From: an uncultured Pseudomonadota bacterium
Lineage (GTDB): Bacteria; Pseudomonadota; Gammaproteobacteria; Burkholderiales; SG8-39
DNA: 64,000 bases
Reading direction: 5' to 3'
NCBI GenBank assembly: GCA_963739205.1
Contig: CAVTZJ010000004.1
Location: 398,614 to 462,613, forward strand
Shown: positions 2,512 to 40,317 of the stretch, piece by piece
Numbering within the stretch: the stretch's first letter is position 1
Layout of the letters: the number at the start of each line of letters is the position of its first letter
The notes under the pieces: model-generated
Databases searched by the model: none
What the model was told of the DNA's origin: nothing
The model's input: the letters and a program-made list of their open reading frames with translations, nothing else
Translations under genes and position numbers: made by a program

Positions 2512-5500
2512 GCCGCGCCCTGCCCGGCGGTCGCCGCATCGACGCGCCGCGCCAGGCGGTCGAACGCGAGGTAGATCACCGGCGTGGTGAACAGCGTGAG
2601 CACCTGGCTCAAGATCAGGCCGCCGACCATCGTGATGCCGAGCGGATTGCGCAGCTCCGAGCCAACGCCCCGTGCCGAGCATCAGCGGCAGCGCGCCGAA
2701 CAGCGCCGACAGCGTGGTCATCAGGATCGGACGGAAGCGCAGCATGCAGGCCTGGGAGATGGCCTCGCGCGGGCTCTTGCCCTCGTCGCCGCTCGGCGTC
2801 CAGCGCGAAGTCGATCATCATGATCGCGTTCTTCTTGACGATGCCGATCAGCAGGATGATGCCGATGATGGCGATCACGCCGAGGTCGCTGCGCGCCAGC
2901 ATCAGCGCGAGCAGCGCGCCGACGCCCGCCGAGGGCAGCGTCGACAGGATCGTAATCGGGTGGATGTAGCTTTCGTAGAGCACGCCGAGCACGATGTACA
3001 TCGTGACGATCGCCGCCAGGATCAGCAGCAGCTCGTTGCTGAGCGACGCCCGGAAGGCGAGCGCCGCGCCCTGGAAGGCGGTGTTCACCGAGACCGGCAG
3101 GCCGAGGTCGCGCTCGGCGCCCTCGATCGCCTTGACCGCGTCGCCGAGCGAATAGCCCTGGGCGACAGTTGAACGATATGGTCGCTGCCGGGAACTGGCC
3201 CAGATGGTTGATCGCCAGGGAGGCGGGCTTCTCCACGGTATGCGTAACAGCCGCCAGCGGCACCTGGCCGCCCCCGGTCGAGGGCACGTACAGGCCGGCG
3301 AGCGCCTGCGGGCCGACGCGGAAGTCCGGCTGCACCTCGAGCACCACGCGGTACTGGTTCGACTGCGTGAAGATGGTCGACACCAGCCGCTGGCCGAACG
3401 CGTCGTAGAGCGCGTTGTCGAGCGCCGCCGGCGTGATGCCCAGGCGTCCCGCGGTGTCGCGGTCGATCGCGAGGAAGGCCTGCAGTCCCTGGTCCTGCAG
3501 GTCCGTGGCCACGTTCGCGAGCTGCGGCAGCTGTGCCAGCCGATCGACCAGCTTGCCGGTCCAGAGCGACAGCTCCGCCGGGTCGGGCGTCTCAAGCGTG
3601 AACTGGTACTGGGTGCGGCTGACGCGGTCCTCGATGGTCAGGTCCTGCACCGGCTGCATGTACAGGCGGATGCCCGGCACCGCCGCGAGCGCCGCTGCAG
3701 GCGCCGGATCACCGCGCTCGCGCTCGCGCCGCGTTCGGCGAGCGGCTTCAGGTTGATCAGCACGCGGCCGCTGTTCAGGGTGGCATTGGTGCCGTCCACG
3801 CCGATGAACGACGACAGGCTCTCGACCGCCGGGTCCTCGAGTATCGACCCGGTCGAGCGCCTGCTGGCGCTCGGCCATGGCGTCGAACGAGATCGACTGC
3901 GGCGCTTCCGAAATGCCCTGGATGACTCCGGTGTCCTGCACCGGGAAGAAGCCCTTCGGCACCACAGACGTACAGCAGCGCCGTGAGCACGAGCGTGCCG
4001 AGCGCGACGAGCAAAGTCGCCCCCTGGCGATCGAGCACCCAGTCGAGCATGCGTCCGTAGGCGGCGATCGTCCTGTCGAACAGCCGGCCGCTCGCGCGGT
4101 AGAAGCGCGCCCTGCTCGGCCTCCGGCACGTGGCGCAGCAGGCGCGCGCACATCATCGGCGTGAGGGTGAGCGAAACTACCGCCGAGATCAGGATCGCGA
4201 CGGCGAGCGTGATCGCGAACTCGCGGAACAGGCGCCCGACCACGTCGCCCATGAACAGCAGCGGGATCAGCACCGCGATCAGCGAGAAGGTGAGCGAGAT
4301 GATGGTGAATCCGATCTGCTCGGAGCCCTTGCAGCGCGGCCTCGCAGCGGCGGCATCGCCCTGCTCGATGTAGCGCGCGATGTTCTCGATCATCACGATC
4401 GCGTCGTCGACCACGAAGCCGGTGGCGATGGTGAGCGCCATCAAGCGTGAGGTTGTTGATGCTGAAGCCAGCCAGGTACATCACGCCGAAGGTGCCGACC
4501 AGCGACAGCGGCACCGCGACGCTCGGAATCACGGTCGCCGCAGCGCTGCGCAGGAACAGGAAGATCACCATCACTACGAGGGCCACCGCGAGCAGCAGCT
4601 CGAATTGCACGTCGCGCACCGAGGCGCGGATCGTCGTGGTGCGGTCGGTGAGCAGCGCGACGTCGATCGACGCCGGCAGCGCGGCGCGCAGCTGCGGCAG
4701 CAGCTGCTTGATGCGGTCGACGACCTCGATCACGTTGGCGCCAGGCTGGCGCTGGATATTGACGATCACCGCCGGGGCGTCGTTCATCCAGGCGGCCAGG
4801 CGTGCGTTCTCGGCGCCTTCGACTCACCGTGCCCAGATCCGAGAGGCGCACGGGCGCGCCGTTGCGGTACGCGATGACCACGTTCGCGTACTGCGCCGCC
4901 GACTGGATCTGGTCGTTGGCATCGATCGTGTAGGCGCGTGTCCGGACCGTCGAAGCTGCCCTTGGCCTGGTTGACGTTGCGTTGGCGACCGCGACGCGCA
5001 CGTCCTCCAGCCCCAGCCCGTTGGCGGCGAGCGCCTTGGGATTGAGCGCGACGCGCACCGCAGGCCGCTGCCCGCCGGAAATCGTCACCAGCCCGACCCC
5101 CGTGAGCTGCGAGATCTTCTGCGCCAAGCGCGTGTCGGCGAGATCTTCGATTTTCGGCAGCGGCAGCGTCGCCGAGGTCAGGCCGAGCGTCAGGATCGGC
5201 GCGTCGGCGGGGTTCACCTTGCTGTACACCGGCGGCGCTGGCAGATCGGTCGGCAGGAAGTTCGACCCCGCGTTGATCGCCGCCTGCACCTCCTGTTCGG
5301 CCACGTCCAGGCCCAAGTCGAGGCTGAACTGCAGCGTGATCACCGAGGCGCCGCCCGAGCTGGTCGAGGACATCTGCTTGAGACCCGGCATCTGGCCGAA
5401 CTGGCGCTCGAGCGGCGCGGTCACCGACGAAGTCATCACGTCCGGGCTGGCGCCCGGATAGAAGGTGACCACCTGAATCGTCGGGTAGTCGACTTCTGGC

Positions 5501-5619: not shown

Positions 5620-6930
5620 TCACGAGCCGCCGGACTGTTCGTGGTGCCCCCTACGGCGCTTAGAGGGGGGCGGCTTCGCGACCGCCGCCTGCGCCGCTTC
5701 GCGCGTGGTCGGCGCGACCTTGGCGCCCTCGCGCAGTCGGTCGGTGCCGTCGATCACCACCCGGTCGCCGGCCGCGGCGCCGGCGCTCACTGCGGTCAGC
5801 TCGCCTTCGCTCGGGCCAAGTTTGACGCCGCGCAGCGTCACGGTGTCGTCGGGCTTGACCAGGAACACGTACAGGCCCTGCGTGCCGCGCTGCACGGCGC
5901 TCGAGGGCACGGTGACGACGCCGCGCAGCGTGTCGATCAGCATGCGCACGTTGACGAACTGCTGGGGGAATAGTCGCCCGTCCTCGTTCGGGAATTCCGC
6001 CTTGAGCTTGACGGTCCCGGTCGCGGGATCGATCTGGTTGTCCACCGCGAGCAGCCGCCCCGAGGCGAGCCGCGTGGTGTCCTCGCGTCCAAAGGCCTCG
6101 ACCGGAATGCGCCCGCCTTCGTGCAAGCGCGCGAGCACGCCGGGCAGGCTGTCCTGGGGAATCGCGAACACGACGGTGATCGGCTGCAACCGCGTGATCA
6201 CCACCAGCCCGTTGGCATCGCTCGCATGCACCACGTTGCCGGGGTCGACGAGCCGCAGACCGAGGCGCCCGGAAATCGGTGCCGTGATGCGCGCGTAGGT
6301 GAGCTGCAACTTCGCATTGTCGATCTGCGCCCGGTCGAGCTTGAGCGTGCCCTCGTACTGCTTGACCAGCGCTTCCTGCGTGGCGACTTGCTGCTCGGCG
6401 ATCGAGTCCTGCTTGAGCAGCGTACGGTAGCGGTCGAGGTCGGTGCGCGCGTTGGCGAGCAGCGCCTCGTCGTGCGCCAGCTGCCCCTCCGCCTGCTCGA
6501 GCTGTACGCGAAACGGGCGCGGGTCGATCTCGGCGAGCAGCTCACCCGCCTTGACCATCTGCCCTTCCTTGAAATGCACCGCCATGAGCTGTCCGTCTAC
6601 GCGGCTGCGCACCGTCACGGTCTCGAGCGGCGTCACGGTGCCCAGGCCCGCGAGATACACGTTCACGTCGCCGGTCTTGGCCGTGGCGACGATCACCGGC
6701 GTCGGCCCGGCATCGCCGCCCGCCGACCGGCGGCCGGACTGTTGCGCACCGGTCAGGTGCTCGAGCGCAAGGGCGACGCCGAGCGCGGCCAGCGCCAGCG
6801 CCAGCGTGCGCCACCAACGCCGGCGCGGTGCGACTTTTCGCTCGACTGCGGGGTTCATGTGGGCGAGTCGCATTGTGCGCCAAGCTGGCGCGCCGCGGAG
6901 CAAGGGCGCCAAAACTTTACCCGCAGACAC
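5620..6930 (-). CDS. mdtA: RND membrane fusion protein, MdtA-like (periplasmic adaptor)
   Basis: Intact 436-codon ORF with strong MdtA-like blocks (EIDPRPFRVQLEQAEGQLA, YARITAPISGRLGLR, FPQQFVNVRML). The real start may be an internal Met at 6873 or 6858. Confidence 0.9.
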   Translation of the reverse strand: MSAGKVLAPLLRGAPAWRTMRLAHMNPAVERKVAPRRRWWRTLALALAALGVALALEHLTGAQQSGRRSAGGDAGPTPVIVATAKTGDVNVYLAGLGTVTPLETVTVRSRVDGQLMAVHFKEGQMVKAGELLAEIDPRPFRVQLEQAEGQLAHDEALLANARTDLDRYRTLLKQDSIAEQQVATQEALVKQYEGTLKLDRAQIDNAKLQLTYARITAPISGRLGLRLVDPGNVVHASDANGLVVITRLQPITVVFAIPQDSLPGVLARLHEGGRIPVEAFGREDTTRLASGRLLAVDNQIDPATGTVKLKAEFPNEDGRLFPQQFVNVRMLIDTLRGVVTVPSSAVQRGTQGLYVFLVKPDDTVTLRGVKLGPSEGELTAVSAGAAAGDRVVIDGTDRLREGAKVAPTTREAAQAAVAKPPPSKRRRGHHEQSGGS

Positions 6931-6970
6931 ACAGCTTTACGGCGCCGAAACAATCGGCGCGCGCATTGCG

Positions 6971-10945: not shown

Positions 10946-12315
10946 ACGTCCCCGCAGAGATCTTTCGCGCCTACGATATCCGCGGCATCGTCGGCCGCAC
11001 CCTGACCCCAGACATCGTGCGCGACATCGGCCGCGCGCTCGGCACCCTCGGGCGCGAGCGCGGCGCGCCCCGCTTCGCGCTCGGCCGCGACGGGCGGCAT
11101 TCCGGACCGGCGCTCGCCGAGGCGATTGCAGAGGGCCTGGTCGCCGCGGGCGCCGAGGCGATCGACCTCGGCATGGTGCCCACCCCGGTGACTTACTTCG
11201 CCGCGCACCATCTCGGCTGCGCCAGCTGCGTGATGGTGACCGGCAGCCACAACCCGCCCGACTACAACGGCCTCAAGATGGTCGTGGCGGGCGACACGCT
11301 CTCGGGCGAATCGATCCAGGAGCTGCGCCGACGCATCGAGACCGGCACTCTTGCCTCGGGCGCGGGACGGCGCAGCACTGCGCAGGTGAGCGACGCCTAC
11401 GTCGAACGCATCGTGGGCGACGTAAAGCTCGCACGGCCGCTGCGTATCGCGATCGACTGCGGCAACGGCGTCGCCGGAATGCTGGCGCCGCGCCTGTACC
11501 GGCGCCTGGGTTGCGAAGTAATGGAGCTCTACTGCGAGGTCGACGGCGACTTTCCAAACCACCACCCCGACCCGTCGCAGCCGGAGAATCTCGCCGACCT
11601 GATCGCTTCATTGCGCGCCGGAGCGGGAGAGCTCGGACTGGCCTTCGACGGCGACGGTGACCGCCTCGGCGTCGTCACCCGCGATGGCGAGATCATCTAC
11701 CCGGATCGCCAGCTCATGTTGTTCGCGGCGGACGTGCTCTCGCGCAATCCCGGCGCCGAGATCATCTACGACGTGAAGTCGACGCGCCTGCTCGCGCCGT
11801 GGATCGAACAGCGCGGCGGCCGCCCGCTCGTGTGGAAGACCGGACACTCGCTCATCAAGGCGAAGCTCAAGGAGACCGGCGCGCCGCTCGCCGGCGAGAT
11901 GTCCGGCCACACCTTCTTCAAGGAGCGCTGGTACGGATTCGACGACGCACTGTATGCCGGCGCGCGCCTGCTCGAGATCCTGTCGCGCGACCCGGACGCG
12001 AACCGGGCGCTAAAAGCTCTGCCGAACGCGCCCTCGACGCCCGAGCTGCACTGGCACCTCGCAGAGGGCGAGCCGCACGCGCTCGTGGCGAGGCTGCAGG
12101 CCACGCGCCCCTTCCCGAACGCGGAGCGCATCCTCACCATCGACGGCGTGCGCGTGGAGTACGCGGACGGCTTCGGCCTCGCGCGCGCCTCGAACACCAC
12201 GCCGGTGATCGTGCTGCGCTTCGAGGCCGACACGCGCGAGGCGCTCACTCGCATCCAGGAGGAGTTCCGGCGCGCGCTCGCGCCGCTCAAGCCTGAAGCG
12301 GATCTTCCGTTCTAG
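10942..12315 (+). CDS. Phosphomannomutase/phosphoglucomutase
   Basis: MNVPAEIFRAYDIRGIVG, the active-site motif TGSHNPPDYNGLK, FDGDGDRLGVV and GEMSGH. ATGA overlap with the upstream gene. Confidence 0.9.
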   Translation: MNVPAEIFRAYDIRGIVGRTLTPDIVRDIGRALGTLGRERGAPRFALGRDGRHSGPALAEAIAEGLVAAGAEAIDLGMVPTPVTYFAAHHLGCASCVMVTGSHNPPDYNGLKMVVAGDTLSGESIQELRRRIETGTLASGAGRRSTAQVSDAYVERIVGDVKLARPLRIAIDCGNGVAGMLAPRLYRRLGCEVMELYCEVDGDFPNHHPDPSQPENLADLIASLRAGAGELGLAFDGDGDRLGVVTRDGEIIYPDRQLMLFAADVLSRNPGAEIIYDVKSTRLLAPWIEQRGGRPLVWKTGHSLIKAKLKETGAPLAGEMSGHTFFKERWYGFDDALYAGARLLEILSRDPDANRALKALPNAPSTPELHWHLAEGEPHALVARLQATRPFPNAERILTIDGVRVEYADGFGLARASNTTPVIVLRFEADTREALTRIQEEFRRALAPLKPEADLPF

Positions 12316-13168
12316 CGAGGCTGCGCCGGTAGCGGCCCAGATCCTGCGCGCTGCGCAGCTCGACGCCGAAAAGCTTCGACAGATTGAGCAGAATCATGTC
12401 GGAGACCTTCTTCTCCCAGCCGCGGTCGAAGCGGATCTGCTCATCGAGCCAGCGCTCGAGCCATTGCGGATCGGGAAGCCTGCTCTGGATGGTGTCGCGC
12501 GGGAAAAGCTGCCGGTTGACGTGCAGGTTGGTCGGGTGCAGGGGCTTGCCCGCGCGCCCCGCGGCCGCCATCAGCACGCCGATCCGGGCGAAGGCGACCC
12601 GCGCCTCGTCGCCGTGTCTTGCCAGCGCGCGCTTCATGTATTGCAGATAGGCCCCGCCGTGGCGCGCCTCATCGCGCGAAATCAAGTCGTAGATGTGCCT
12701 GATCACCGGCTCGCTGTGCCATTGCGCGGCGCGCCGGTACCAGTGGTTGAGCCGGATCTCGCCGCAGAAGTGCAGCATCAGCGTCTCGAGCGGCGGCGCG
12801 GGATCGAAGGCGAAGCGCACCGCGTGCAGCTCGGACTCGCTCGGGGCAAGCGCGGGCCGGAAATGTCGCAGGTACTCGATCAGCACGAGCGAGTGCTTCT
12901 GTTCCTCGTAGAACCAGACCGACATGAACGCGGAGAAATCGCTGTCGTGCAGGTTGTCGCGCAGGAACATTTCGGTGGCGGGCAGCGCCGCCCACTCGGT
13001 GATCGCGTTCATCTTGATGGTGAGCGCCTGCTCGTCGGAGAGCAGCGCTGCGTCGAACGATTTCCAGGGCACGTCCTTGCCCATGTCCCAGCGCACGCGT
13101 TCGAGGGACTTGAATATCTCTGGATAGAGCATGGTGTGCAAATCGGTTTTCGCGATCATCCGTTGCAA
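12287..13168 (-). CDS. Ferritin-like di-iron carboxylate protein, soluble acyl-ACP-desaturase-like
   Basis: 293 aa with two ExxH motifs (EEQKH and DEARH) plus additional Glu ligand candidates, spaced as in soluble desaturases. It starts 1 nt after the litR-like stop. Its 3' end overlaps the convergent PMM/PGM gene by 29 nt. Confidence 0.65.
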   Translation of the reverse strand: MQRMIAKTDLHTMLYPEIFKSLERVRWDMGKDVPWKSFDAALLSDEQALTIKMNAITEWAALPATEMFLRDNLHDSDFSAFMSVWFYEEQKHSLVLIEYLRHFRPALAPSESELHAVRFAFDPAPPLETLMLHFCGEIRLNHWYRRAAQWHSEPVIRHIYDLISRDEARHGGAYLQYMKRALARHGDEARVAFARIGVLMAAAGRAGKPLHPTNLHVNRQLFPRDTIQSRLPDPQWLERWLDEQIRFDRGWEKKVSDMILLNLSKLFGVELRSAQDLGRYRRSLARTEDPLQA

Positions 13169-14086
13169 TTATGTCTCTGCGGCGTGTCCGGCGCGCCATT
13201 CCGCGAGCGCTGTCCCGATCCCGGCCAAGTCGCGGAACACGCGCACTCCGGCAGGGGGACGCTTCAGGCGCGCCGCGCCGGCCCCGCCGCACCATAGTTC
13301 CACTCCCGTCGGCAGCCCGGCACGCAGCGACTTTACAACCTCCTGCAGCCCCGCCGCCGGGAAGTTACCGCTGAATGAAACCGCCACGACGTCGGCGCGC
13401 TTGGCGAGCGCCGCGGCCGCCAACTCGGCGACTGGTGTTTGCATGCCGAGCGAAACGCACTCCGCACCCTCGAGCGCGCAGGCCGCCTCGGCCATCAGCA
13501 GGCCGAGGCCATGCTGCTCGCCGGGCAGCGTTGAGAGGAGTACACGGGGCGCGCCGCCGGCCGTCGGCACTTGGCTAATCGCCTGGCGCAACACTCCTTG
13601 CAGCTGCTCGGTGAACAGGTGCTCCTCGAACACGTGGATCTCGCCGCGCATCCACGCCTCACCGACCAGTGTGGCGAGCGGCGCTGCGCTCTCGGTAAGG
13701 AAACGGAACAAGCCGTCGCGCACCACCGCCTGATTAAGTTCGCGGCGCAGCTCGGCGGTCTGGTGCGTCTTCAAGAGGTAAAGCGCCAGGTCGTGCAGCG
13801 CGCTGAGCGGCGCGGCCGACGGCGTTCCAGCCGCCTGTGTCTCGAGCTCAACGGCCGACATGGCGAAAATGCGCCCGGGGCGAAGACCCTGATCCATCAG
13901 ACGCCGGATCAGCCGCAGGCGGGAGACCTGATCCAAGGGGTAACTGCGCTCGCCGAACGCGTTCCGCGTCGGTTGCGGGAAACCGTAGCGCCGCTCCCAG
14001 ATGCGCAGCGTGTCCTTGGAAACGCCGGTTTCACGCTCCACCGCCGCGATGGACAGTGGCTCACTTGGATTGCTGGGGACCATCAC
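13169..14086 (-). CDS. MerR-family regulator with a C-terminal cobalamin-binding domain (LitR/CarH-type light-responsive regulator)
   Basis: N-terminal MerR HTH (LSIAAVERETGVSKDTLRIWERRYGFP) and a C-terminal B12-binding signature (TLPGEQHGLGLLMAE, the E-x-H-x-x-G motif, followed by ADVVAVSFS). Confidence 0.8.
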   Translation of the reverse strand: MMVPSNPSEPLSIAAVERETGVSKDTLRIWERRYGFPQPTRNAFGERSYPLDQVSRLRLIRRLMDQGLRPGRIFAMSAVELETQAAGTPSAAPLSALHDLALYLLKTHQTAELRRELNQAVVRDGLFRFLTESAAPLATLVGEAWMRGEIHVFEEHLFTEQLQGVLRQAISQVPTAGGAPRVLLSTLPGEQHGLGLLMAEAACALEGAECVSLGMQTPVAELAAAALAKRADVVAVSFSGNFPAAGLQEVVKSLRAGLPTGVELWCGGAGAARLKRPPAGVRVFRDLAGIGTALAEWRAGHAAET

Positions 14087-14087
14087 T

Positions 14088-14164
14088 TTGTCCTAGACAA
14101 TCTGTTGACACGTTGCTCAGTTCCCGCCATTATTCCACAATAAACTCAGTTTTGACTAGGACAA
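14088..14164. promoter_or_regulatory. Divergent control region: a 12/13 inverted repeat pair flanking a TTGACA-17-CATTAT promoter
   Basis: The repeats are TTGTCCTAGACAA at 14088-14100 and TTGACTAGGACAA at 14152-14164. The -35 TTGACA is at 14105-14110 and the -10 CATTAT at 14128-14133, pointing rightward. The first repeat abuts the regulator's start codon. Confidence 0.45.
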
Positions 14165-14538
14165 CCCATGAAAACCGCTTCGTCATTCATTCTTGGTGCA
14201 ATGGTAGTGGGCACTCCCTTCTATGCGCAAGCCGCTGTAACGACAGCGGATTTCTACTATTCGGCACTACGCGGCGCCCCTGTACCCGACGCAGAACACG
14301 GCACGACAGGCACCAAGTCGTCGGAGCCCCGCACGTCGCAAGCATGCGATGAACGCCTCGCCGACCTGGTGGAGGCGCATTCCGGCCGTCGCCCGCCCTG
14401 CGCCGTGCGTTCGACCTCCCCCAGGACCAAGTCATGACCCATCTTGCACGCTGGAGCGCAGACGCGCTGGCACTCGCGATCCTGTTCCTGCCGACCTTCC
14501 CGTTGCTCGCCGCGCTGCTGCGCGCCTGAGGCCACGCA

Positions 14539-15825
14539 ATGCGCATCGCGATCGTCGGCTCCGGCATTTCGGGCCTGTCCGCAGCGTGGCTGCTGGCGCA
14601 ACGCCACACGGTGACCCTCTTTGAGGGCGACCGGCGCCTCGGCGGCCATACCCACAGCGTGGACGTCACGCTCGGCGGCGTCACGCGCGCGGTGGACACC
14701 GGCTTCCTGGTGTTCAACCAGCGGACTTACCCCAACCTGGCGGCGCTGTTCCGCGCGCTCGGCGTCCGGGCCGCAAAAAGCGACATGAGTTTCAGCCTGT
14801 CCCTCGAGCAGCCGGCGCTGGAATGGGCCGGCAACAGCGTCGCGACGCTGTTCGCGCAGCGCCGCAACATCGTGCGTCCTGCGTTTCTCCGCATGCTGCG
14901 CGACGTCGTGCGCTTCAACCGCGAGGCTTCGCGCGCCGAAGCAACCGGTGCCTCGCCCTCGCTCGGCGAGTTCCTCGAGCGAGGCCGCTACAGCGCGGCT
15001 TTTCGTGACTGGTATCTCCTGCCAATGGCCGCCGCCATCTGGTCGTGCCCGACGCGGAACATGCTCGAGTTTCCGTTCTCCCCCTTCGCGCGCTTCTTCA
15101 GCAATCACGGGCTGCTGCAGATCGCCGACCGGCCACAGTGGTACACGGTCGCCGGCGGCGCCAGGCAATACGTCGAGCGCATGGCGCGCGCCATCCCGGA
15201 TGTGCGCCTCGCGACGCCGGTGACGCGCGTGCGCCGCGATACCTCCGGCGTGCGCGTGATGGGCGAGCACTTCGACGCCCTCGTGCTCGCCTGCCACAGC
15301 GACCAGGCGCTCGCGATCCTGGCCGACGGCGCGACCCCCGAGGAGCGCGCAGTGCTAGGCGCCATTCCGTACCAGAAAAACCGCGCGCTGCTGCACACCG
15401 ACGCGGCGGTGCTGCCGAAGCGGCGCAGCATCTGGTCGGCGTGGAATTACTCCGCCGGGCGCGACACGCCCGCCGGCCGCCCGGTCGCCGTGCATTACCT
15501 CATCAACAAGCTGCAGCCGCTGCCTTTTTCGGAGCCGGTGATCGTGTCACTCAACCCGCACCGCGAGCCGGCGCCGGAGCGCGTGCTCGGCGTGTACGAC
15601 TACGAGCATCCGGTGTTCGACCAACGATCGGAACACGCGCAGGCCGCGCTTGGCGCGCTGCAAGGTGCGCGGCGCACCTGGTTCTGCGGCGCCTGGACGC
15701 GCTACGGCTTTCACGAGGATGGCCTCGACTCGGCGCTCGCCGTCGCGCTCGGCTTCGGCGTCCAGCCGCCCTGGGCCGCCGCGCGGGAAATACCGACCGA
15801 AGAAATGGAGCGCGTTGCCGCATGA
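14539..15825 (+). CDS. FAD/NAD(P)-binding amine-oxidase-like oxidoreductase (fatty-acid desaturase UfaD-like)
   Basis: MRIAIVGSGISGLSAAWLL...FEGDRRLGGHT dinucleotide-binding fold. First gene of the conserved operon. Confidence 0.8.
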   Translation: MRIAIVGSGISGLSAAWLLAQRHTVTLFEGDRRLGGHTHSVDVTLGGVTRAVDTGFLVFNQRTYPNLAALFRALGVRAAKSDMSFSLSLEQPALEWAGNSVATLFAQRRNIVRPAFLRMLRDVVRFNREASRAEATGASPSLGEFLERGRYSAAFRDWYLLPMAAAIWSCPTRNMLEFPFSPFARFFSNHGLLQIADRPQWYTVAGGARQYVERMARAIPDVRLATPVTRVRRDTSGVRVMGEHFDALVLACHSDQALAILADGATPEERAVLGAIPYQKNRALLHTDAAVLPKRRSIWSAWNYSAGRDTPAGRPVAVHYLINKLQPLPFSEPVIVSLNPHREPAPERVLGVYDYEHPVFDQRSEHAQAALGALQGARRTWFCGAWTRYGFHEDGLDSALAVALGFGVQPPWAAAREIPTEEMERVAA

Positions 15826-16580
15826 GCGCCGAGCTGGTGTGCGGTCAGGTCATGCACCGCCGGCTGCGGCCGGTGCAGAACCGCTTCGTCTACCGCGTGT
15901 TCTTCCTCCGGCTGCCGCTGTCGCGCCTCGAAGACGCGGCCAATGCGATTCTTTCGCTCAACCGCTTCAACTTGCTCGGCTTTCATTTTCGCGACCACGG
16001 CGCGCGGGACGGCTCGCATCCGCTCGCCTGGGTGCGCGCGCTGCTGGCACGCGAAGGGCTCGCCTGCGCCGACGGCGAGGTATGGCTGCATGCTTTTCCG
16101 CGCGTGCTCGGCTACGTGTTCAACCCGGTCAGCTTCTGGTTCTGCGAGGACCGCGCCGGAAGCACGCGCGCCATCTTGGCGGAGGTCAACAACACCTTCG
16201 GTGAGCGCCACTGCTACCTGCTCGCGCACCCCGACCAGCGGGCGATCGAAGACGGTGACGAACTCGCCGCGCGCAAGGTGTTCCACGTCTCGCCCTTCTT
16301 TCCGGTCGCCGGCGCCTACCGATTCAGGTTTGCGAACGGCGGCCGCCTGCGCATGGCGCGCATCGACTACCGCGACGACGCCGGCTCGCTGCTGCTCACC
16401 AGCATCTCGGGCCGGGCGCAGCCGCTCACGGCTGCGCGCCTGGCGAGAGCGTTTATCGCGCATCCGCTGATGAGCTTCGGCGTGATGGCCCGCATCCACT
16501 GGCAGGCAGCGAGGCTGTGGGCCAAGCGGGTGCCTTTCTTCTCCAAGCCCGCACCGCCCACAGAGGAGCTAAGCCGATGA
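15822..16580 (+). CDS. DUF1365 family protein
   Basis: GQVMHRRLRPVQNRFVYRVFFLRLPL...FHFRDHG is the DUF1365 N-terminal signature. ATGA overlap on both sides. Confidence 0.75.
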   Translation: MSAELVCGQVMHRRLRPVQNRFVYRVFFLRLPLSRLEDAANAILSLNRFNLLGFHFRDHGARDGSHPLAWVRALLAREGLACADGEVWLHAFPRVLGYVFNPVSFWFCEDRAGSTRAILAEVNNTFGERHCYLLAHPDQRAIEDGDELAARKVFHVSPFFPVAGAYRFRFANGGRLRMARIDYRDDAGSLLLTSISGRAQPLTAARLARAFIAHPLMSFGVMARIHWQAARLWAKRVPFFSKPAPPTEELSR

Positions 16581-17773
16581 CCACGACCACCCGCGCCGGG
16601 CACCCTCTTCCGTTTTCCGCGCGAGCGGTGCTCGGCGCCCTCGACCGACTCTCCTACGGCAGGCTGCGCGCGGTGCTGCCCGACGGCCAGCGCATGGACT
16701 TCGGTCCCGGCGGCCCGGAGGCGACGCTCGAGGTGCGCGACTGGCGCGCCTTCGCACGCGTCGTGCGCGGCGGCGACATCGGCTTCGCCGAGGGCTACCT
16801 CGACGCCGACTGGCGCACGCCGGAGCTCGCCTGCCTGCTTACGCTGCTCGCAGCGAACCGCACGGCGCTCGACGCCCAGATGGGAGGCTCGGCGCTCGTC
16901 AGCCTGCTGCACCGCCTGCGTTATGCGCTGCGGGCCAACACGCGGCGCGGCAGCCGGCGCAACATCGCGGCGCACTACGACCTGGGCAACGCCTTTTACG
17001 CGCTCTGGCTCGACCCCGGGATGACTTACTCCAGCGCGCTGTACAACGGCGACCCGACGCGCTCGCTCGGGGACGCGCAGCACGCCAAGCACGAGCGCGC
17101 CCTTGCCCGCATCGCCCTGCGGCCGGGGGCGCACGTGCTCGAGATCGGCAGCGGCTGGGGTGCCTTCGCGGAACTTGCCGCGCGACGTGGCCATCGCGTC
17201 ACCGGCCTGACGCTGTCGAGCGAGCAGCTTGCCTGGTCGCGCGAGCGCGTGGCGCGCACGGGACTCGCGTCGCGCGCGCGCTTCGAGCTGCGCGACTATC
17301 GCGACGCGCGAGCGCGCTACGACGCCGTGGCCTCGATCGAGATGTACGAGGCGGTCGGCGAGCGCTGGTGGCCGCAATACTTCGCGCGCATCGCCGCCGC
17401 CCTGCCGCAAGGGGGCCGTGCCCTGGTGCAGGCGATCGTGATCGATGACGCGCTGTTCGAGCGCTACCGCAAGGGCAGCGACTTCATCCGGCACTACATC
17501 TTCCCCGGCGGCATGCTCGCCTCGCACCAGCGCCTGCTCGGCGTGGCGCACCGCGCCGGGCTCGCGGCGGCCGAATCATTTCATTTCGGTGGCGATTACG
17601 CGCTGACGCTCGCCGCCTGGCGCAGCCGCTTCCTCGCGCGCAGGCACGAGCTGCGCGCGCTCGGCTTCGATGAGCGCTTCGTGCGCATGTGGGAGTTCTA
17701 CCTCGCCTATTGCGAGGCGGGCTTCGTCAGCGGCTCGACCGATGTCGCGCAGATCCTCCTCGTCAAGCAATGA
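16577..17773 (+). CDS. Cyclopropane-fatty-acyl-phospholipid synthase family SAM methyltransferase
   Basis: NIAAHYDLGNAFYALWLD, VLEIGSGWG (SAM motif I) and FIRHYIFPGG are typical of the Cfa/UfaM family. Confidence 0.85.
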   Translation: MTTTTRAGHPLPFSARAVLGALDRLSYGRLRAVLPDGQRMDFGPGGPEATLEVRDWRAFARVVRGGDIGFAEGYLDADWRTPELACLLTLLAANRTALDAQMGGSALVSLLHRLRYALRANTRRGSRRNIAAHYDLGNAFYALWLDPGMTYSSALYNGDPTRSLGDAQHAKHERALARIALRPGAHVLEIGSGWGAFAELAARRGHRVTGLTLSSEQLAWSRERVARTGLASRARFELRDYRDARARYDAVASIEMYEAVGERWWPQYFARIAAALPQGGRALVQAIVIDDALFERYRKGSDFIRHYIFPGGMLASHQRLLGVAHRAGLAAAESFHFGGDYALTLAAWRSRFLARRHELRALGFDERFVRMWEFYLAYCEAGFVSGSTDVAQILLVKQ

Positions 17774-18255
17774 AGCACGTCGTCGCGCTCGTCCTGCTTT
17801 TCCTCGCTTCCGTCCTGCATGCGAGCGAGCCCATGGAGCGCGTTGGCGCAGGGACGCTGCGCTGGTTCGGCCTGCACGTGTACGACGCCGAGCTGTGGGC
17901 AAGCGGCGGCTCGGCCGACTTCTCGTCCCCGTTCCGCCTCACGCTGCGCTACGCGCGCGCGCTGCGCGGCAAGGCGATCGCGGAGCGCTCGGCCGAGGAG
18001 ATCTCACGACTGGACTTCGGCAGCCCGGCCCAGCGCGCTGCCTGGCGCGACACCATGCGCGCATTGTTCCCGGACGTGGCCGCCGGCGACAGCCTGAGCG
18101 GGCTGTACCTGCCCGGCCGCGGCGCGCGCTTCTTCCATAACGGCCGGCCGCTCGGCGAGATCGACGATGCGCAGTTCGCGCGCGCATTTTTCGCCATCTG
18201 GCTCGACCCCCGAACCAGCGCGCCCGACCTGCGCGCCGCGCTTCTAGGCGAGTGA
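17770..18255 (+). CDS. Chalcone-isomerase-like periplasmic protein
   Basis: Signal peptide MKHVVALVLLFLASVLHA, and the GAGTLRWFGLHVYDAELW motif typical of the bacterial CHI-like family. ATGA overlap. Confidence 0.65.
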   Translation: MKHVVALVLLFLASVLHASEPMERVGAGTLRWFGLHVYDAELWASGGSADFSSPFRLTLRYARALRGKAIAERSAEEISRLDFGSPAQRAAWRDTMRALFPDVAAGDSLSGLYLPGRGARFFHNGRPLGEIDDAQFARAFFAIWLDPRTSAPDLRAALLGE

Positions 18256-19514
18256 TGAGCGCGCGCACGCTGCGGCCGGCGGCGCTCGCCGCATACGGCG
18301 CGCTCGGCCTGCCGCTCGCCGGCGCCGCGCTGCCGGTGTACGTGCACCTGCCGAACCTCTATGGCGGCATCCTTGGCGTCAACCTGGCGCTGCTCGGCGC
18401 CGTGCTGCTCGGCATGCGCCTCGCCGACGCCTTCGTCGATCCGCTTCTCGGCGCGCTGAATGACCGGTTGCAGCGTCCACGCATGCTGGTGGCGTTCGGC
18501 GCACTGTTGCTCGCCGGCGGCCTGCTTGCCGTGTTCAACCCTCCGCGCGCCGGCATCGCGCCGTGGCTTTGGCTCGCCGCCACGCTGCTGCCCCTGTACC
18601 TCGGATACAGCCTGGCGAGCGTCAGCTACATGGCCTGGGGCGCCCTGCTCGGCGACAATCCCCACGAGCGCACACGCGTCACCGCGAGCCGGGAAGCGTT
18701 CGGCCTCGCCGGTGTGGTACTGGCGAGCGTCGCACCGACGTTGATCGCTTCGTCGCTCGATGACGGTCTCGCACGGTATACAGTACTCGCCGCGGTTCTG
18801 ATCGCGGTCTGCGCGGCGATCACGCTCTCGCGCGCGCCCGCGCCGCCGCGCCAACCCTCCCACGCCCCGGGCTGGCGAGCGCTGGCGGCGCCCTTCGCGA
18901 ACTCCGCCTTCACGCCGCTGCTCGCGGTGTTCATGGTGAACGGCATCGCCGGCGCGTTGCCGGCAACGCTGGTTCTGTTCTACATCGGCGACGCTTTGCG
19001 CCTGCCGCAGCAAGCCGGCTTCTTCCTCGCCGCGTACTTCGTGGCCGGCGCCGCCAGCCTGCCGCTATGGGTAGGCGCCGCGCGCGTCTACGGCAAGGCG
19101 GCAGCCTGGCTGGGCTCGATGCTGCTCGCCGTCGTCGCTTTCGCCGGCGCCTTCGCGCTCGGCCCGGGAGACGGCGCCGCGTTCTTCGCCGTGTGCATCG
19201 CCTCGGGCGCAGCGCTAGGCGCAGACCTCGCATTGCCGCCGGCGCTGCTCGCCGACGCGATCCGCGAGCGCGGCGAAGACGCGCGCGCCGGCGCCTACTT
19301 CGGCATCTGGAATTTCGCCACCAAGGCGAACCTCGCGCTCGCCGCAGGGCTCGCCCTGCCGCTGCTCGCGTGGTTCGGCTACGTGCCGGGCGACGCGGCG
19401 AGCGTCGCGCCCCTTTACTACGCCTACTGTCTGCTGCCCTGCGCGCTGAAGCTCGCCAGCGCGGCAATGCTATGGCGCGGCACGGCCGCGCTCCCGGAGG
19501 TTCGCCATGCTTAG
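18252..19514 (+). CDS. MFS transporter (glycoside/pentoside/hexuronide-like)
   Basis: 420 aa and about 12 hydrophobic spans. The start is GTG at 18252 or ATG at 18255. Confidence 0.7.
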   Translation: MMSARTLRPAALAAYGALGLPLAGAALPVYVHLPNLYGGILGVNLALLGAVLLGMRLADAFVDPLLGALNDRLQRPRMLVAFGALLLAGGLLAVFNPPRAGIAPWLWLAATLLPLYLGYSLASVSYMAWGALLGDNPHERTRVTASREAFGLAGVVLASVAPTLIASSLDDGLARYTVLAAVLIAVCAAITLSRAPAPPRQPSHAPGWRALAAPFANSAFTPLLAVFMVNGIAGALPATLVLFYIGDALRLPQQAGFFLAAYFVAGAASLPLWVGAARVYGKAAAWLGSMLLAVVAFAGAFALGPGDGAAFFAVCIASGAALGADLALPPALLADAIRERGEDARAGAYFGIWNFATKANLALAAGLALPLLAWFGYVPGDAASVAPLYYAYCLLPCALKLASAAMLWRGTAALPEVRHA

Positions 19515-20037
19515 GAAGCTGATTGCCGTCTCGTCCCTCGTCGCGCTGCTAGCGGGCTGCGCCGTCCCGGGTCCCGAAACCTACCGCGACGAGAAGCCGG
19601 CCCTCGACCTGATGTCGTATTTCGACGGCACCGTCGACGCCTGGGGCCAATTCGCGGACCGCTCCGGCAAGGTGGTCAAGCGCTTCACGGTGGTGATCCG
19701 CGGCCGGGTCGAGGGCGGGACGCTCACGCTCGACGAGGACTTCAGCTATTCGGACGGCACGAAGCAGCGGCGCGTATGGACCATCCGCCGCATCGACGCG
19801 CATCGCTATGCGGGCACCGCCGCGGACGTGGTGGGTGAGGCGCGCGGCGAGGCTTGGGGCAACGCGCTGCGCTGGCAGTACGTGCTCGCGCTGGAGCTCG
19901 ACGGCAGGGTCTGGAACGTCGACTTGGACGACTGGATGTACCTGCAGCAAGGCGGCGTGATGCTGAACCGCTCCGAGATGAGCAAGCTCGGCGTGCGCCT
20001 GGGCGAAGTACTGATCGCGTTCCGCAAGCGCGGCTGA
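19507..20037 (+). CDS. DUF3833 family lipoprotein
   Basis: Lipobox LLAGC, and FDGTVDAWGQFADRSGKVVKRF...DDWMYL is a DUF3833 pattern. It overlaps the MFS gene by 8 nt. Confidence 0.7.
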   Translation: MLRKLIAVSSLVALLAGCAVPGPETYRDEKPALDLMSYFDGTVDAWGQFADRSGKVVKRFTVVIRGRVEGGTLTLDEDFSYSDGTKQRRVWTIRRIDAHRYAGTAADVVGEARGEAWGNALRWQYVLALELDGRVWNVDLDDWMYLQQGGVMLNRSEMSKLGVRLGEVLIAFRKRG

Positions 20038-20039
20038 CG

Positions 20040-20807
20040 ATGGCGCTGAATCGCATCGTGCCCGGCTGGGCGAAACGGCGGGTCTGGGTCGTGGGCGCCT
20101 CGAGCGGCATCGGCGCCGCCACCGCGGAGCTGCTGCTCGAACGCGGCGCGCGCGTCGCGGTCTCTGCGCGTAGCGCGCAGACGCTCGAGGCGCGCTTCGG
20201 GGCGCGCGCGCTCGTCGAGCCGCTCGAGGTCACCAACCACGCGGCTGTAAGGGGCGTCGCCGATCGCATCGCCGGCGCCTGGGGCGGGCTCGACCTGGTG
20301 ATCGACTTCGCCGGCAGCTACCGCGCGGCGCGCGCCTGGCAGCTCGACGCCGCCGAGGCCCGTGCGACGGTCGAGGTAAACCTGATCGGCGCACTGAACG
20401 TCGTCGCGGCGACTCAGCACCGGCTGCTTGAGCAGGGCGCGGGCGGAATCGCCCTGGTTTCCAGCGTCGCGGGCTATGCGGGCCTCCCCAACAGCCTCGT
20501 CTACGGCGCCACCAAGGCCGCGCTCATCAACCTCGCCGAGACGTTGTGGCTCGATCTGTCGCCGCTCGGCGTCTCGGTGTACCTGATCAACCCGGGCTTC
20601 GTGGAAACGCCGCTCACCGCGCAGAACCGGTTCCGCATGCCGGCGCTGATCGGCGCGGACCAGGCGGCACGCGAGATCCTCGCCGGGATCGAGCGTGGGG
20701 CGTTCGACATCCACTTTCCTAAGCGCTTCACGCGCGCCATGAAGCTGCTCAAGCTACTTCCATACCCCCTTCAATTCGCGCTTGTGCGGCGCTACACCGG
20801 CCTGTGA
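20040..20807 (+). CDS. Short-chain dehydrogenase/reductase
   Basis: VWVVGASSGIGAA (TGxxxGxG-type motif) and YGATKAAL (the YxxxK catalytic motif). Confidence 0.85.
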   Translation: MALNRIVPGWAKRRVWVVGASSGIGAATAELLLERGARVAVSARSAQTLEARFGARALVEPLEVTNHAAVRGVADRIAGAWGGLDLVIDFAGSYRAARAWQLDAAEARATVEVNLIGALNVVAATQHRLLEQGAGGIALVSSVAGYAGLPNSLVYGATKAALINLAETLWLDLSPLGVSVYLINPGFVETPLTAQNRFRMPALIGADQAAREILAGIERGAFDIHFPKRFTRAMKLLKLLPYPLQFALVRRYTGL

Positions 20808-21220
20808 GCGACGTCGCGCGCATCGTCGAGTACTTTGAGTCGCTCACGCCGGACGCGGTCGCGCGGCTAAGCGAGCATTACGCCGCCAACGCCTGGTTCA
20901 AGGACCCGTTCAACGAGGTCACCGGGCTGGAGGCCATCCGGCGCGTCTTCGCTCACATGTACCATCAGGTGGAAGAACCGCGCTTCCGGGTCACCGACCG
21001 CGTGGTCGCCGACAACGGCGCGCTGCTCGTGTGGGACTTCACCTTTCGCCTCGGGCGCCGGGCGATCGTGGTGCGCGGCGCAACGCACTTGCGCTTCAAC
21101 GGCCGCGGCAAGGTGACCTACCACCGCGACTACTGGGACACCGCAGAGGAGCTGTACGGCAAACTCCCCCTGCTCGGAACGCTCACGCGGCTGCTGCGCC
21201 GCAGGCTTGCGGCAAGCTAA
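20804..21220 (+). CDS. NTF2/SnoaL-like protein
   Basis: 138 aa, with a GTGA overlap with the SDR gene. The pattern AANAWFKDPFNEV...HRDYWD is a SnoaL-type pattern. Confidence 0.6.
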   Translation: MSDVARIVEYFESLTPDAVARLSEHYAANAWFKDPFNEVTGLEAIRRVFAHMYHQVEEPRFRVTDRVVADNGALLVWDFTFRLGRRAIVVRGATHLRFNGRGKVTYHRDYWDTAEELYGKLPLLGTLTRLLRRRLAAS

Positions 21221-21956
21221 CGAAAATGAGGTCCGATGCGCGCGAGCGCGTCGGTGACCAGGCAATTGACGCCCCAGCTGAGCAGGCGGTGAGCTGTGCG
21301 CCGGTCGTTCACGGTCCAGCACAGAAGACCGTAGTCCGCATCACGAACCGCTTCCGCGAGGTCCGGCTTGAGCGCGCCGTGGTTGCAGTGCAGCGCGATG
21401 CACTCCAGGTCCTGCATCGCCTCGCGCCACTTCTCGGGAATGCGCCCGACCAGCAGCCCGCGCGGCAGCTCCGGCGCAGCCGCCCGCGCGGCGCCGAGCG
21501 CGAGCGGCGAGAACGAGGACAGGACCGGCGGCAGCGTCGCGCCGTGCCACAGCTCGCGCGCGGCGAGCGCGACGACCTCGCCGGTGCGTCGCTCGTAGCC
21601 GGCCGCGGGCTTGATCTCGACGTTCGCCCAAAGCCCGAGCTCGCGGCAAAGGCGCGCCGCCTGCTCGAAAGTCGGGATGCGCTCGCCGCGCCACTTCCTG
21701 CCGCGCCAGGCGCCCGCGTCGAGCTCGGCGAGGCGCGCGTAGGTCGTGCGCGCCACCTCGCCGCGCGCGCCGGTCGTGCGCGCGAGGGTCTCGTCGTGTA
21801 TCAGCACCGGCGTGCCGTCGCCCGCCAGCATGACGTCGAACTCGACGCCGCGAAAACCGAGCGCGGCGCCCAGCCGAATCGCTGCGAGCGTGTTCTCGGG
21901 CGCCAGGCGCCCGCCGCCCCGGTGCGCGACGATTTTCGGATAGGGCCAGCGCGCGC

Positions 21957-21960
<4 letters not shown>
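21217..21960 (-). CDS. ugpQ: Glycerophosphodiester phosphodiesterase
   Basis: [36 protein letters not shown] and NVEIKP are GDPD-family motifs. Last gene of the ugp operon. Confidence 0.9.

Positions 21961-22963
<1,003 letters not shown>

Positions 22964-40241: not shown

Positions 40242-40317
<76 letters not shown>

Follow-up and report, generated by a model that had tools for sequence, protein, structure and literature searches.

Light- or singlet-oxygen-controlled gene clusters for furan fatty acids (FuFAs) are already known from Rhodobacter, where an extracytoplasmic function (ECF) sigma factor governs them, and from Pseudomonas, where a class II LitR acts together with LOV proteins. In the described pathway, the CMAS-family methylase UfaM, the FAD desaturase UfaD and the DUF1365 protein UfaO, which uses O2, convert the vaccenate chains of phospholipids into 11Me-12t-18:1, then into a 10,12-diene and finally into 9M5-FuFA (PMC7380195). 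In Rhodopseudomonas palustris, RPA2571-2570-2569 (ufaD-ufaO-ufaM) are both required and sufficient to make FuFAs, and UfaD corresponds to RSP1091 of Rhodobacter sphaeroides and to RPA2571 (PMC7380195). In Pseudomonas, class II LitRs (PplR1/PmlR1-2) and short LOV proteins control a nine-gene operon, phrB-...-SDR-FAD oxidoreductase-ufaM (SDR, short-chain dehydrogenase/reductase), and the class II LitR of P. mendocina represses the homologous light-induced operon through two footprinted sites, of which one is at the -35 element and the other follows the start site but precedes the start codon (PMC9758184). Here, we describe a locus in a 64-kb stretch of DNA from an uncultured Burkholderiales bacterium (contig CAVTZJ010000004.1; the whole stretch is referred to as the window). 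We consider this locus to be, with fair probability, a self-contained light-response system in which a class I, that is B12-type, LitR controls two divergent units: one containing litR itself and a gene for a di-iron protein, and the other a furan-lipid operon.

The two units consist of the following genes:

12287-13159/13168, minus strand: di-iron protein gene (alternative starts)
13169-14083/14086, minus strand: litR (start at ATG 14083 or GTG 14086)
14539-15825, plus strand: FAD amine oxidase, ufaD-type, the first large gene of the operon
15822-16580, plus strand: DUF1365 protein, ufaO-type
16577-17773, plus strand: CMAS protein, ufaM candidate
17770-18255, plus strand: Chalcone_3 protein, chalcone-isomerase-like (CHI-like)
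18252-19514, plus strand: MFS_2 transporter
19507-20037, plus strand: DUF3833 lipoprotein
20040-20807, plus strand: SDR
20804-21220, plus strand: SnoaL_2/NTF2-fold protein, the final gene of the operon

The window has a composition of ~69% G+C, and long spurious open reading frames (ORFs) are therefore common. The G+C content at third codon positions (GC3) was 0.80-0.90 in each of the ten locus genes, a bias that is typical of real genes. A preliminary description of this DNA, made from the letters alone, had proposed the eight-gene rightward unit (14539-21220), and all of its family assignments were confirmed with Pfam; searches with the models that it had named (B12-binding, MerR, DUF1365, DUF3833, CMAS and Chalcone_3) supported each family. 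The successive junction distances in this unit are -4, -4, -4, -4, -8, +2 and -4 nt, which agrees with the five 4-nt overlaps, one 8-nt overlap and one 2-nt gap counted earlier; an alternative MFS start (ATG 18255) would leave a 1-nt overlap with the Chalcone_3 gene. The overlaps had also been read as a sign of translational coupling and strict co-expression, but 4-nt overlaps are usual operon anatomy and are no proof of translational coupling. In the leftward unit, litR is followed by the di-iron gene at a distance of 0-9 nt, and the two are probably cotranscribed. The regulator of this unit had been described correctly, whereas the di-iron gene, although it lies inside the interval that was covered, had been passed over. 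The litR-to-oxidase gap of 452 bp contains two small ORFs and the operator/promoter region.

The first three genes of the operon match the FuFA set. The ufaD-type protein matched Pfam Amino_oxidase (1e-16) as well as NAD_binding_8 and DAO, the ufaO-type protein matched DUF1365 over its full length (2e-80) and the third protein matched CMAS (5e-76). All three Ufa families are thus present and contiguous, in the R. palustris order ufaD-ufaO-methylase, from which a FuFA product is predicted. The roles of UfaM, UfaD and UfaO, including the identity of UfaO as a DUF1365 protein, had been given in the preliminary description and proved accurate (PMC7380195). Alternatively, the operon could make cyclopropane fatty acids, fatty acids that are only methyl-branched, or otherwise oxidised ones, if the CMAS protein is a Cfa-type synthase and another substrate is used by the oxidase and the DUF1365 protein. 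In NCBIfam, the CMAS protein indeed has its best matches to cyclopropane synthase models, and the DUF1365 family is broad, with a warning from Lemke et al. that its members may serve other roles (PMC7380195). However, the CMAS protein scored below every NCBIfam cut-off for cyclopropane fatty acid (CFA) synthase equivalogs (259 vs 600, 224 vs 400 and 193 vs 650), and the counterpart cluster in Pseudomonas is annotated with ufaM and is light-induced. We regard a product other than FuFAs as unlikely. NCBIfam contained no specific family for the DUF1365, CHI-like, DUF3833, NTF2-fold or di-iron proteins.

The regulator matched Pfam MerR_1 (7e-14), B12-binding_2 (7e-5; at 23.3 bits against a cut-off of 23, this barely passes) and B12-binding (3e-10). 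In its 304-aa form, it aligned over its full length to Thermus thermophilus CarH (TtCarH; PDB 5c8d/3whp) with an E-value of 1e-26. This form, which starts at the ATG, is identical to a protein already on record, and an exact-sequence look-up found no identical protein for the form that starts at the GTG. Published criteria for CarH are the motifs RxWERRY, Wx9EH and D/ExHx2G/P-x41-SxT/V-x22-27-GG, of which Wx9EH separates CarH from the B12-independent CarA (PMC9304148). In the recognition helix, LitR reads LRIWERRYGFP where TtCarH reads LRQWERRYGFP. The Wx9EH motif is intact, as EAW-MRGEIHVFE-EH (W144-x9-E154H155). The sequence EQHGLG corresponds to E189-x-H191-x-x-G194, is aligned to the His177 motif of TtCarH, and is followed, as counted by hand, by 41 residues, SFS, 27 residues and GG, as in the Rossmann module. 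The elements GxxW, EH, GxxH and GxxxP make up the published light-response signature of CarH, derived with SignatureFinder (PMC11796333), and all four are found in LitR as VGEAW, EEH, PGEQH and GMQTP, compared with GEAW, EH, GERH and GPDTP in TtCarH. Among 120 homologues, Wx9EH never varied at its W, E and H (120/120); in ExHxxG, the E and H were likewise invariant and the G was kept in 118.

These results distinguish the regulator from the other LitR classes. Class II LitRs of Pseudomonas contain only the B12-binding_2 four-helix bundle and no Rossmann B12-binding domain (PMC9758184), a definition that does not fit LitR, as it has the B12-binding domain PF02310 with the His ligand motif. For the class III LitR of Burkholderia, the same source gives a C-terminus that has no similarity to B12-binding domains (PMC9758184). 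By domain content, as defined by Takano's group, the regulator is assigned to class I as a CarH/LitR homologue. The earlier recognition of a LitR/CarH-like MerR regulator with a C-terminal cobalamin-binding domain, based on EQHGLG, is thereby upheld by the Pfam matches, the TtCarH alignment and the motifs in its homologues.

Both units appear to be controlled from a compact region between litR and the lipid operon:

14088-14100: operator box 2, TTGTCCTAGACAA, 4 bp upstream of the P_ufa -35 element and in the litR 5' untranslated region (UTR)
14105-14133, plus strand: P_ufa, sigma-70-type TTGACA-17-CATTAT, score 10/12, facing the lipid operon
14129-14158, minus strand: P_litR, TAGTCA-18-AATAAT with an extended TG, score 9/12, its -35 element within box 1
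14152-14164: operator box 1, TTGACTAGGACAA (reverse complement of TTGTCCTAGTCAA), overlapping the P_litR -35 element, downstream of the predicted P_ufa start site and ahead of the first ORF

P_ufa and P_litR, whose -10 elements overlap, were the only promoter-like sites in the scan, which covered 12000-22200. The 64-kb window contains two exact matches to TTGTCNNNGNCAA, namely box 1 and box 2, and these bracket both promoters. The boxes have the form TTGTC-N3-GACAA and are placed in mirror orientation, 64 bp apart, so that each promoter has one box at or beside its -35 element and the other downstream of its predicted start site (~14140 on the plus strand, ~14122 on the minus strand) but ahead of the first start codon; box 2 also contains the litR Shine-Dalgarno sequence AGGA. 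The TAGACA half of box 2 (14094-14099) and the -35 element TTGACA (14105) are 11 bp apart and both fit the CarH repeat TnnACA, with a spacing that is kept across loci. This makes a CarH-like contact at the P_ufa -35 element plausible. Activation by promoter distortion, as in other MerR-type regulators, was rejected, as the promoter spacers are 17 and 18 bp rather than 19-20 bp; these spacers favour repression.

To place the locus among its relatives, we used a genome scan with one genome per species, which yielded 432 LitR relatives, and compared the loci of the best 80. Almost all of these 80 belong to Burkholderiales, Rhodocyclales or unclassified betaproteobacterial assemblies, and the closest among them are two uncultured Burkholderiales metagenome-assembled genomes, at 97% and 94% identity. 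A box was found within 260 bp upstream of litR in 77 of 81 related loci. At least two boxes were present in 58 loci, and in 47 of these the spacing was 62-64 bp, which is about six helical turns. The box consensus across loci is tTTG(T/A)C(T/C)(A/T)(G/A)GACAAa, with seven invariant positions, and a TTGACA -35 element and an AT-rich -10 element between the boxes are also kept in the locus consensus. In the three closest genomes, the boxes and promoter hexamers were identical, whereas the spacer varied. Within 10 kb on either side of litR in the 80 loci, only three further box matches were found, all of them chance-like, and further members of the regulon can thus not be defined locally.

Gene neighbourhoods were counted in 61 non-redundant loci whose sequence extends 9 kb or more upstream of litR; these loci were searched with all proteins of the window. 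The divergent arrangement of litR and ufaD-DUF1365-CMAS was found in 48 of these loci, and in 36 the set of eight genes was complete and in unchanged order. Where the cluster was partial, MFS and DUF3833 were mostly the missing genes, and 13 loci had LitR with no lipid cluster nearby. The di-iron gene was co-directional with litR and at most 2 kb downstream of it in 34 of 73 loci. In several others (L021, L024, L028, L034 and L039), it was found at the distal end of the lipid operon and on the operon strand, which points to a linkage with the whole pathway and not with the regulator alone. The di-iron protein was 70-86% identical where LitR was 46-64% identical, and is thus better conserved than the regulator. 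The conserved box pair and the synteny, both from in silico comparison, would tie LitR to the two divergent units far more firmly than adjacency does. Control by light, which had earlier been proposed from adjacency, is supported by this comparison.

In some sister species, the first gene behind box 1 encodes a periplasmic glutathione peroxidase, FolE2 or a fasciclin. These gene types are also found in the Rhodobacter sigmaE singlet-oxygen regulon (PMC7074977), and FolE is a member of the Pseudomonas LitR regulon (PMC9758184). Judged from its gene types, the content of the predicted regulon is the familiar photo-oxidative stress set, and the sensor alone differs.

Two observations concern the recent evolution of the locus. 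A mosaic patch at 16650-18140 had 63-81% nucleotide identity to the nearest relative (L013), whereas the rest of the locus had 94-98%. This patch exactly covers the CMAS and CHI-like genes, both of which are extra relative to the R. sphaeroides operon RSP1091-1087, and these seem to have been exchanged by recombination as a two-gene unit. Loci L004 and L007 have kept the box pair and have an apparent short remnant of the ufaD 5' end ~100-200 bp upstream of litR, which is similar to the beginning of ufaD in L006 and L015; the remaining lipid operon is missing from the available sequence. This suggests a secondary loss of the lipid cluster in some lineages.

A number of points weigh against a light-controlled furan-lipid system. 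The residue after the Trp in LitR corresponds to His132 of TtCarH, the upper ligand of the light-state bis-His adduct; among the 120 homologues this position is never His and mostly Ala or Met. The SxT/V element deviates, its third residue being Ser, and LitR scored 119.9 bits on the NCBIfam CarH equivalog NF052513 (TransRegCarH), for which the cut-off is 400. Because of these three features, we place the regulator, from its sequence, in a distinct class I subfamily that is not closely orthologous to the CarH proteins that have been studied. Characterised CarH operators consist of 3-4 contiguous 11-bp direct repeats (PMC9304148), which the dominant conserved feature found here, a pair of separated 13-bp pseudo-palindromes, does not resemble; such a pair is not known from described CarH operators, and since the operator departs from this form, the stoichiometry of LitR at the boxes and any looping between them are guesses. 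Among the annotated genes of the window, where the annotation covers all but 27.7-29.3, 33.4-34.1, 38.4-40.4 and 58-64 kb, there was no photolyase, B12 uptake or B12 synthesis gene. By family and position, the CMAS protein is a candidate UfaM orthologue, but may instead be a cyclopropane synthase. Light control by LitR and the lipid product are both predicted from sequence, for this host as well as for the whole LitR clade.

Several of these points would also fit a regulator that senses B12 status, or a CarA-like light-independent repressor, which would respond to cobalamin or to an antirepressor without direct photolysis. Besides the absent His132 equivalent and the low CarH equivalog score, the palindromic operator is closer to CarA sites than to the direct repeats of CarH, and for class II LitRs at the homologous operon in Pseudomonas, a separate LOV protein is required as a partner. 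In contrast, the motif that separates CarH from CarA is intact in LitR (PMC9304148), all elements of the light-response signature are present (PMC11796333), the locus contains no LOV or antirepressor gene, and the co-regulated gene types are photo-oxidative stress genes. We consider a regulator of this kind distinctly improbable. That LitR controls only litR and the di-iron gene, the adjacent lipid operon being driven otherwise, for example by an ECF sigma/ChrR pair encoded elsewhere, is highly improbable: the homologous genes in Rhodobacter and P. syringae do belong to an ECF sigma regulon, and the loci that have LitR with no cluster nearby would fit such an arrangement, but the operon-facing promoter is near the sigma-70 consensus with box 2 beside its -35 element and box 1 in its 5' UTR, the box-promoter-box unit is kept at a fixed spacing of 63-64 bp wherever the operon occurs, and the annotated genes of the window include no ECF sigma, anti-sigma or ChrR gene.

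If the locus is a light-response system of class I LitR, it would work as follows. By analogy to CarH, LitR would bind adenosylcobalamin in the dark, oligomerise and occupy both boxes, so that both the unit with litR and the di-iron gene and the unit from the two small ORFs (s89 and s31, described below) through ufaD to the NTF2 gene would be shut off. Under UV, blue or green light, the Co-C bond would be photolysed, the oligomer would fall apart and both units would be transcribed. As in Rhodobacter and Rhodopseudomonas, the methylase would then convert cis-vaccenoyl chains of phospholipids into 11-methyl-12-trans-18:1, and the FAD desaturase would convert the methylated chain into a 10,12-diene. 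By the same analogy, the DUF1365 protein would use O2 to turn this diene into a methylated furan fatty acid that would scavenge singlet oxygen and radicals in the membrane. For the other proteins, folds and localisation signals hint at possible steps: the MFS_2 transporter might move a modified acyl chain or lyso-lipid across the inner membrane, the periplasmic CHI-fold protein and the DUF3833 barrel might bind the transported lipid, and the SDR, the NTF2-fold protein and the di-iron enzyme might further modify or repair acyl chains.

The CHI-like protein matched Pfam Chalcone_3 (2e-12) and has a signal peptide with hydrophobic residues 1-19. It is predicted to be a periplasmic protein with a chalcone-isomerase fold and a cleavable signal peptide. 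The fold includes plant fatty-acid-binding proteins. The MFS_2 protein, assigned as an inner-membrane transporter, matched Pfam MFS_2 (2e-57) and the NCBIfam gph subfamily, and has ~10 hydrophobic segments; the eukaryotic lysolipid transporter MFSD2A is also a member of the MFS_2 family. The DUF3833 protein matched its Pfam family at 2e-63 and has the lipobox LLAGC, whose Cys18 did not vary among 28 homologues. Two features that had been noted earlier, the lipoprotein status of this protein and the CHI-like signal peptide, can be seen in the sequence. An AlphaFold2 (AF2) model of the DUF3833 protein, with a predicted local distance difference test (pLDDT) score of 92.7, is a 10-stranded beta-barrel. 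Its Foldseek matches were nitrobindin/THAP4, At1g79260, Rv2717c, Ycf58, which resembles fatty-acid-binding proteins (FABPs), and BFA1, at query TM-scores (TMq) of 0.53-0.66. This model points to a lipoprotein-anchored barrel of the calycin/nitrobindin type with a pocket for a hydrophobic ligand. Sequence searches of the PDB with the DUF3833 and CHI-like proteins gave nothing useful. The SDR matched Pfam adh_short (2e-37) and the NTF2-fold protein SnoaL_2 (8e-16).

The di-iron protein (290-293 aa) matched Pfam FA_desaturase_2 (3e-8) and AurF (8.5e-5), and its match in a PDB sequence search was Mycobacterium tuberculosis DesA2. All six predicted di-iron ligands, in E55, E86xxH89, E134 and E164xxH167, were invariant in 25 homologues. 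The best structural matches of the AF2 model (pLDDT 77.6) were plant acyl-ACP desaturases and DesA2, followed by the lipid-binding R2lox and aldehyde-deformylating oxygenases. This is consistent with a soluble carboxylate protein that resembles acyl-ACP desaturases.

The second half of the operon had been called uncharacterised in the preliminary description. However, its MFS_2, DUF3833 and SDR genes correspond to RSP_1089 (GPH symporter), RSP_1088 (lipoprotein) and RSP_1087 (SDR) in the Rhodobacter sigmaE operon (PMC7074977, PMC5507510). Together, the MFS_2, CHI-like, DUF3833, SDR, NTF2-fold and di-iron proteins suggest, with low confidence, an envelope module for lipid binding and transport with additional redox chemistry on acyl chains. 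In R. sphaeroides, the fatty-acid profile was unchanged when the MFS, lipoprotein and SDR homologues were deleted one at a time (PMC7380195), which weighs against the tentative idea of an envelope module. A more far-reaching and rather improbable reading is that of a distinct CarH subfamily in betaproteobacteria of the Burkholderiales and Rhodocyclales type that has no second His, uses two palindromic operators at a distance of six helical turns, probably with DNA looping by the B12-bound oligomer, and directs a full light-triggered lipid programme of the envelope in place of pigment synthesis. Furan fatty acids would be made in the inner membrane, the soluble di-iron protein, as the best-conserved partner of the regulator and an acyl desaturase/oxygenase, would add a new chemical step, and modified or oxidised lipid would be exported or recycled across the periplasm, from an MFS_2 flippase through a CHI-fold carrier to the DUF3833 calycin barrel. 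If true, DUF3833 and the RSP1087-1089-type genes, for which no phenotype was seen in Rhodobacter, would thereby gain functions.

Two small ORFs lie ahead of ufaD:

14168-14437, plus strand: s89, an 89-aa ORF with a signal-peptide-like N-terminus
14434-14529, plus strand: s31, a 31-aa hydrophobic peptide, MTHLARWSADALALAILFLPTFPLLAALLRA, whose start overlaps the s89 stop (ATGA)

In L003 and L013, s89 contains a 3-nt indel that leaves its frame open, and it has been called as a gene in a public assembly. However, its G+C content by codon position is flat (.60/.62/.64) and substitutions are not enriched at third positions. On this mixed evidence, the coding status of s89 is uncertain and the region may instead be a long 5' leader. 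The predicted RNA structure of this leader is ordinary (z -0.73). A terminator-like hairpin at 14232-14249, CCGCTGT-AACG-ACAGCGG followed by ATTTCTACTA, is contained in the 89-codon ORF/leader; it was rejected as a terminator, as such matches occur at chance level in the region, and its stem is kept only in part in L013. The s31 ORF is in frame with ufaD, from whose ATG it is separated by a TGA and three codons. Its G+C content by codon position (.71/.55/.81) is coding-like, and L003 and L013 have conserved the peptide as well as the TGA. The ORF may encode a membrane peptide of its own or be what is left of an N-terminal extension. Neither s89 nor s31 matched a Pfam family.

In other species, the same first position is filled by small secreted proteins that are unrelated or weakly related; in many species these are 65-145 aa long and have no Pfam match. 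Five of them (L029, L030, L031, L046 and L058, in each case the first ORF after box 1) form a family with mutual E-values of 1e-8 to 1e-45 and the motif DLLFY(F/L)(S/D)SH.QAV...PW.EL.P. Further groupings of first-position secreted proteins were L035/L067, L009/L026 and L023/L047.

The locus is flanked on both sides by convergent housekeeping genes:

ends at 12315: phosphoglucomutase/phosphomannomutase (PGM/PMM) gene, convergent with the di-iron gene
ends at 21217, minus strand: ugpBAECQ operon, convergent with the NTF2 gene; its ugpQ, for a glycerophosphodiester phosphodiesterase (GDPD), is at 21217-21960 (minus strand)

The 3' ends overlap at both edges of the locus, by 29 nt between the PGM/PMM and di-iron genes and by 4 nt between the NTF2 gene and ugpQ, which leaves no space for terminators. 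A tblastn search found no paralogues of the locus genes elsewhere in the 64-kb window, and an Rfam search of the window found no cobalamin or other riboswitch and a single tRNA gene (40245-40317, minus strand). On the minus strand at 1381-1659 and 3638-4480, downstream of an HlyD-type adaptor gene (5620-6936), ORF fragments matched non-collinear parts of an AcrB/RND (resistance-nodulation-division) profile (286-362 and 388-501). These matches point to a tandem pair of RND genes (MdtB/C-like) or else to frameshifts. The region at 38-58 kb carries genes for a beta-ketoacyl synthase and an alpha/beta hydrolase, a type IV pilus minor-pilin/PilY1 cluster that includes an open frame of 1609 codons, and the conserved ribF-ileS-lspA-ispH block, all of which are ordinary genes with no relation to the lipid locus.

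Characterised B12-based CarH/LitR regulators are tied almost entirely to carotenoids, whereas a bona fide class I homologue seems to govern the chemistry of membrane fatty acids in this locus and in 48 or more related genomes at species level. If this is true, class I LitR would be a third sensor that converges on photo-oxidative lipid defence, beside the ECF sigma factor of Rhodobacter and the LOV/class II LitR pair of Pseudomonas. The system is compact, with a two-box control region of 77 bp, and the arrangement has cultured carriers, namely Parazoarcus communis SWub3 (DSM 12120; L048), Zoogloea sp. LCSB751 (L064), Paucibacter sp. DJ2R-2 (L079) and Parvibium lacunae KMB9 (L051). It contains five or six conserved genes that have no known role (CHI-fold, MFS_2, DUF3833, SDR, NTF2-fold and di-iron), and these may provide a lead on the reductant or on extra steps of FuFA synthesis. 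The regulator and its boxes could also serve optogenetics in Gram-negative bacteria as a new repressor/operator pair that responds to green light. Current understanding is not overturned by any of these points.

Of the described systems, the R. sphaeroides sigmaE-ChrR operon RSP1091-1087 (Lemke 2014/2020; Dufour 2008) contains the same families in the same order (FAD oxidase-DUF1365-MFS_2-DUF3833-SDR), as matched by annotation rather than by sequence. Compared with it, the present operon has the CMAS and CHI-like genes inserted after ufaO and the NTF2 gene appended, and ufaM of R. sphaeroides is the separate RSP2144; RSP1089 was ruled out as a CMAS homologue, as it is annotated as a GPH symporter (PMC7074977). 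The inferred output, FuFAs against photo-oxidative damage, is shared, but control differs: here a B12-type MerR repressor would act on a sigma-70 promoter, there an ECF sigma/anti-sigma pair. The divergent neighbour of the present operon is litR and not an rpoE-chrR pair, and its promoter, TTGACA-17-CATTAT, is not of the ECF-sigma kind. Moreover, a di-iron gene is linked to the regulator here and no photolyase gene is. R. palustris RPA2571-RPA2568 has the same contiguous ufaD-ufaO-methylase order.

The light-induced class II LitR operon of Pseudomonas (Sumi 2020; Maruyama 2022) shares both the two-site operator design and the lipid genes with the locus described here. There, however, B12 is not needed, a separate LOV antirepressor is involved and the site is TGTACA-N12-TGTACA, whereas the present locus has both B12 domains, the light-signature residues and TTGTC-N3-GACAA boxes, and has no LOV gene. 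Burkholderia multivorans is a betaproteobacterium that also has a LitR-family regulator, although this is a class III LitR (PMC9758184). The preliminary description had stated that LitR-class regulators control cfa-like genes in Pseudomonas and Burkholderia; such control is documented for the former and cited for the latter, but these regulators belong to classes II and III and are B12-independent (PMC9758184). With the same lipid output under class I LitR here and class II or III LitR there, a different sensor appears to be wired to the same output. Our literature search, whose reach did not extend to Sumi 2018 and Sumi 2020, found no paper that links class I LitR/CarH to FuFA genes. The class III LitR of B. 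multivorans is said, in Sumi 2018, to exert light-responsive control over a CfaS-like gene and over folate genes.

The characterised class I CarH proteins of T. thermophilus, Myxococcus xanthus, Bacillus megaterium and Streptomyces have the same domain architecture and motifs as LitR and likewise adjoin their target, and they share with it a sigma-70-type promoter with an operator element that includes the -35 element. Their targets are genes for carotenoid synthesis, whereas here the predicted target is a membrane fatty-acid operon and the His132 equivalent is not His. The locus is thus not a new kind of system; what is new is its class I B12 sensor, its operator architecture, the linked di-iron gene and the breadth of its conservation.

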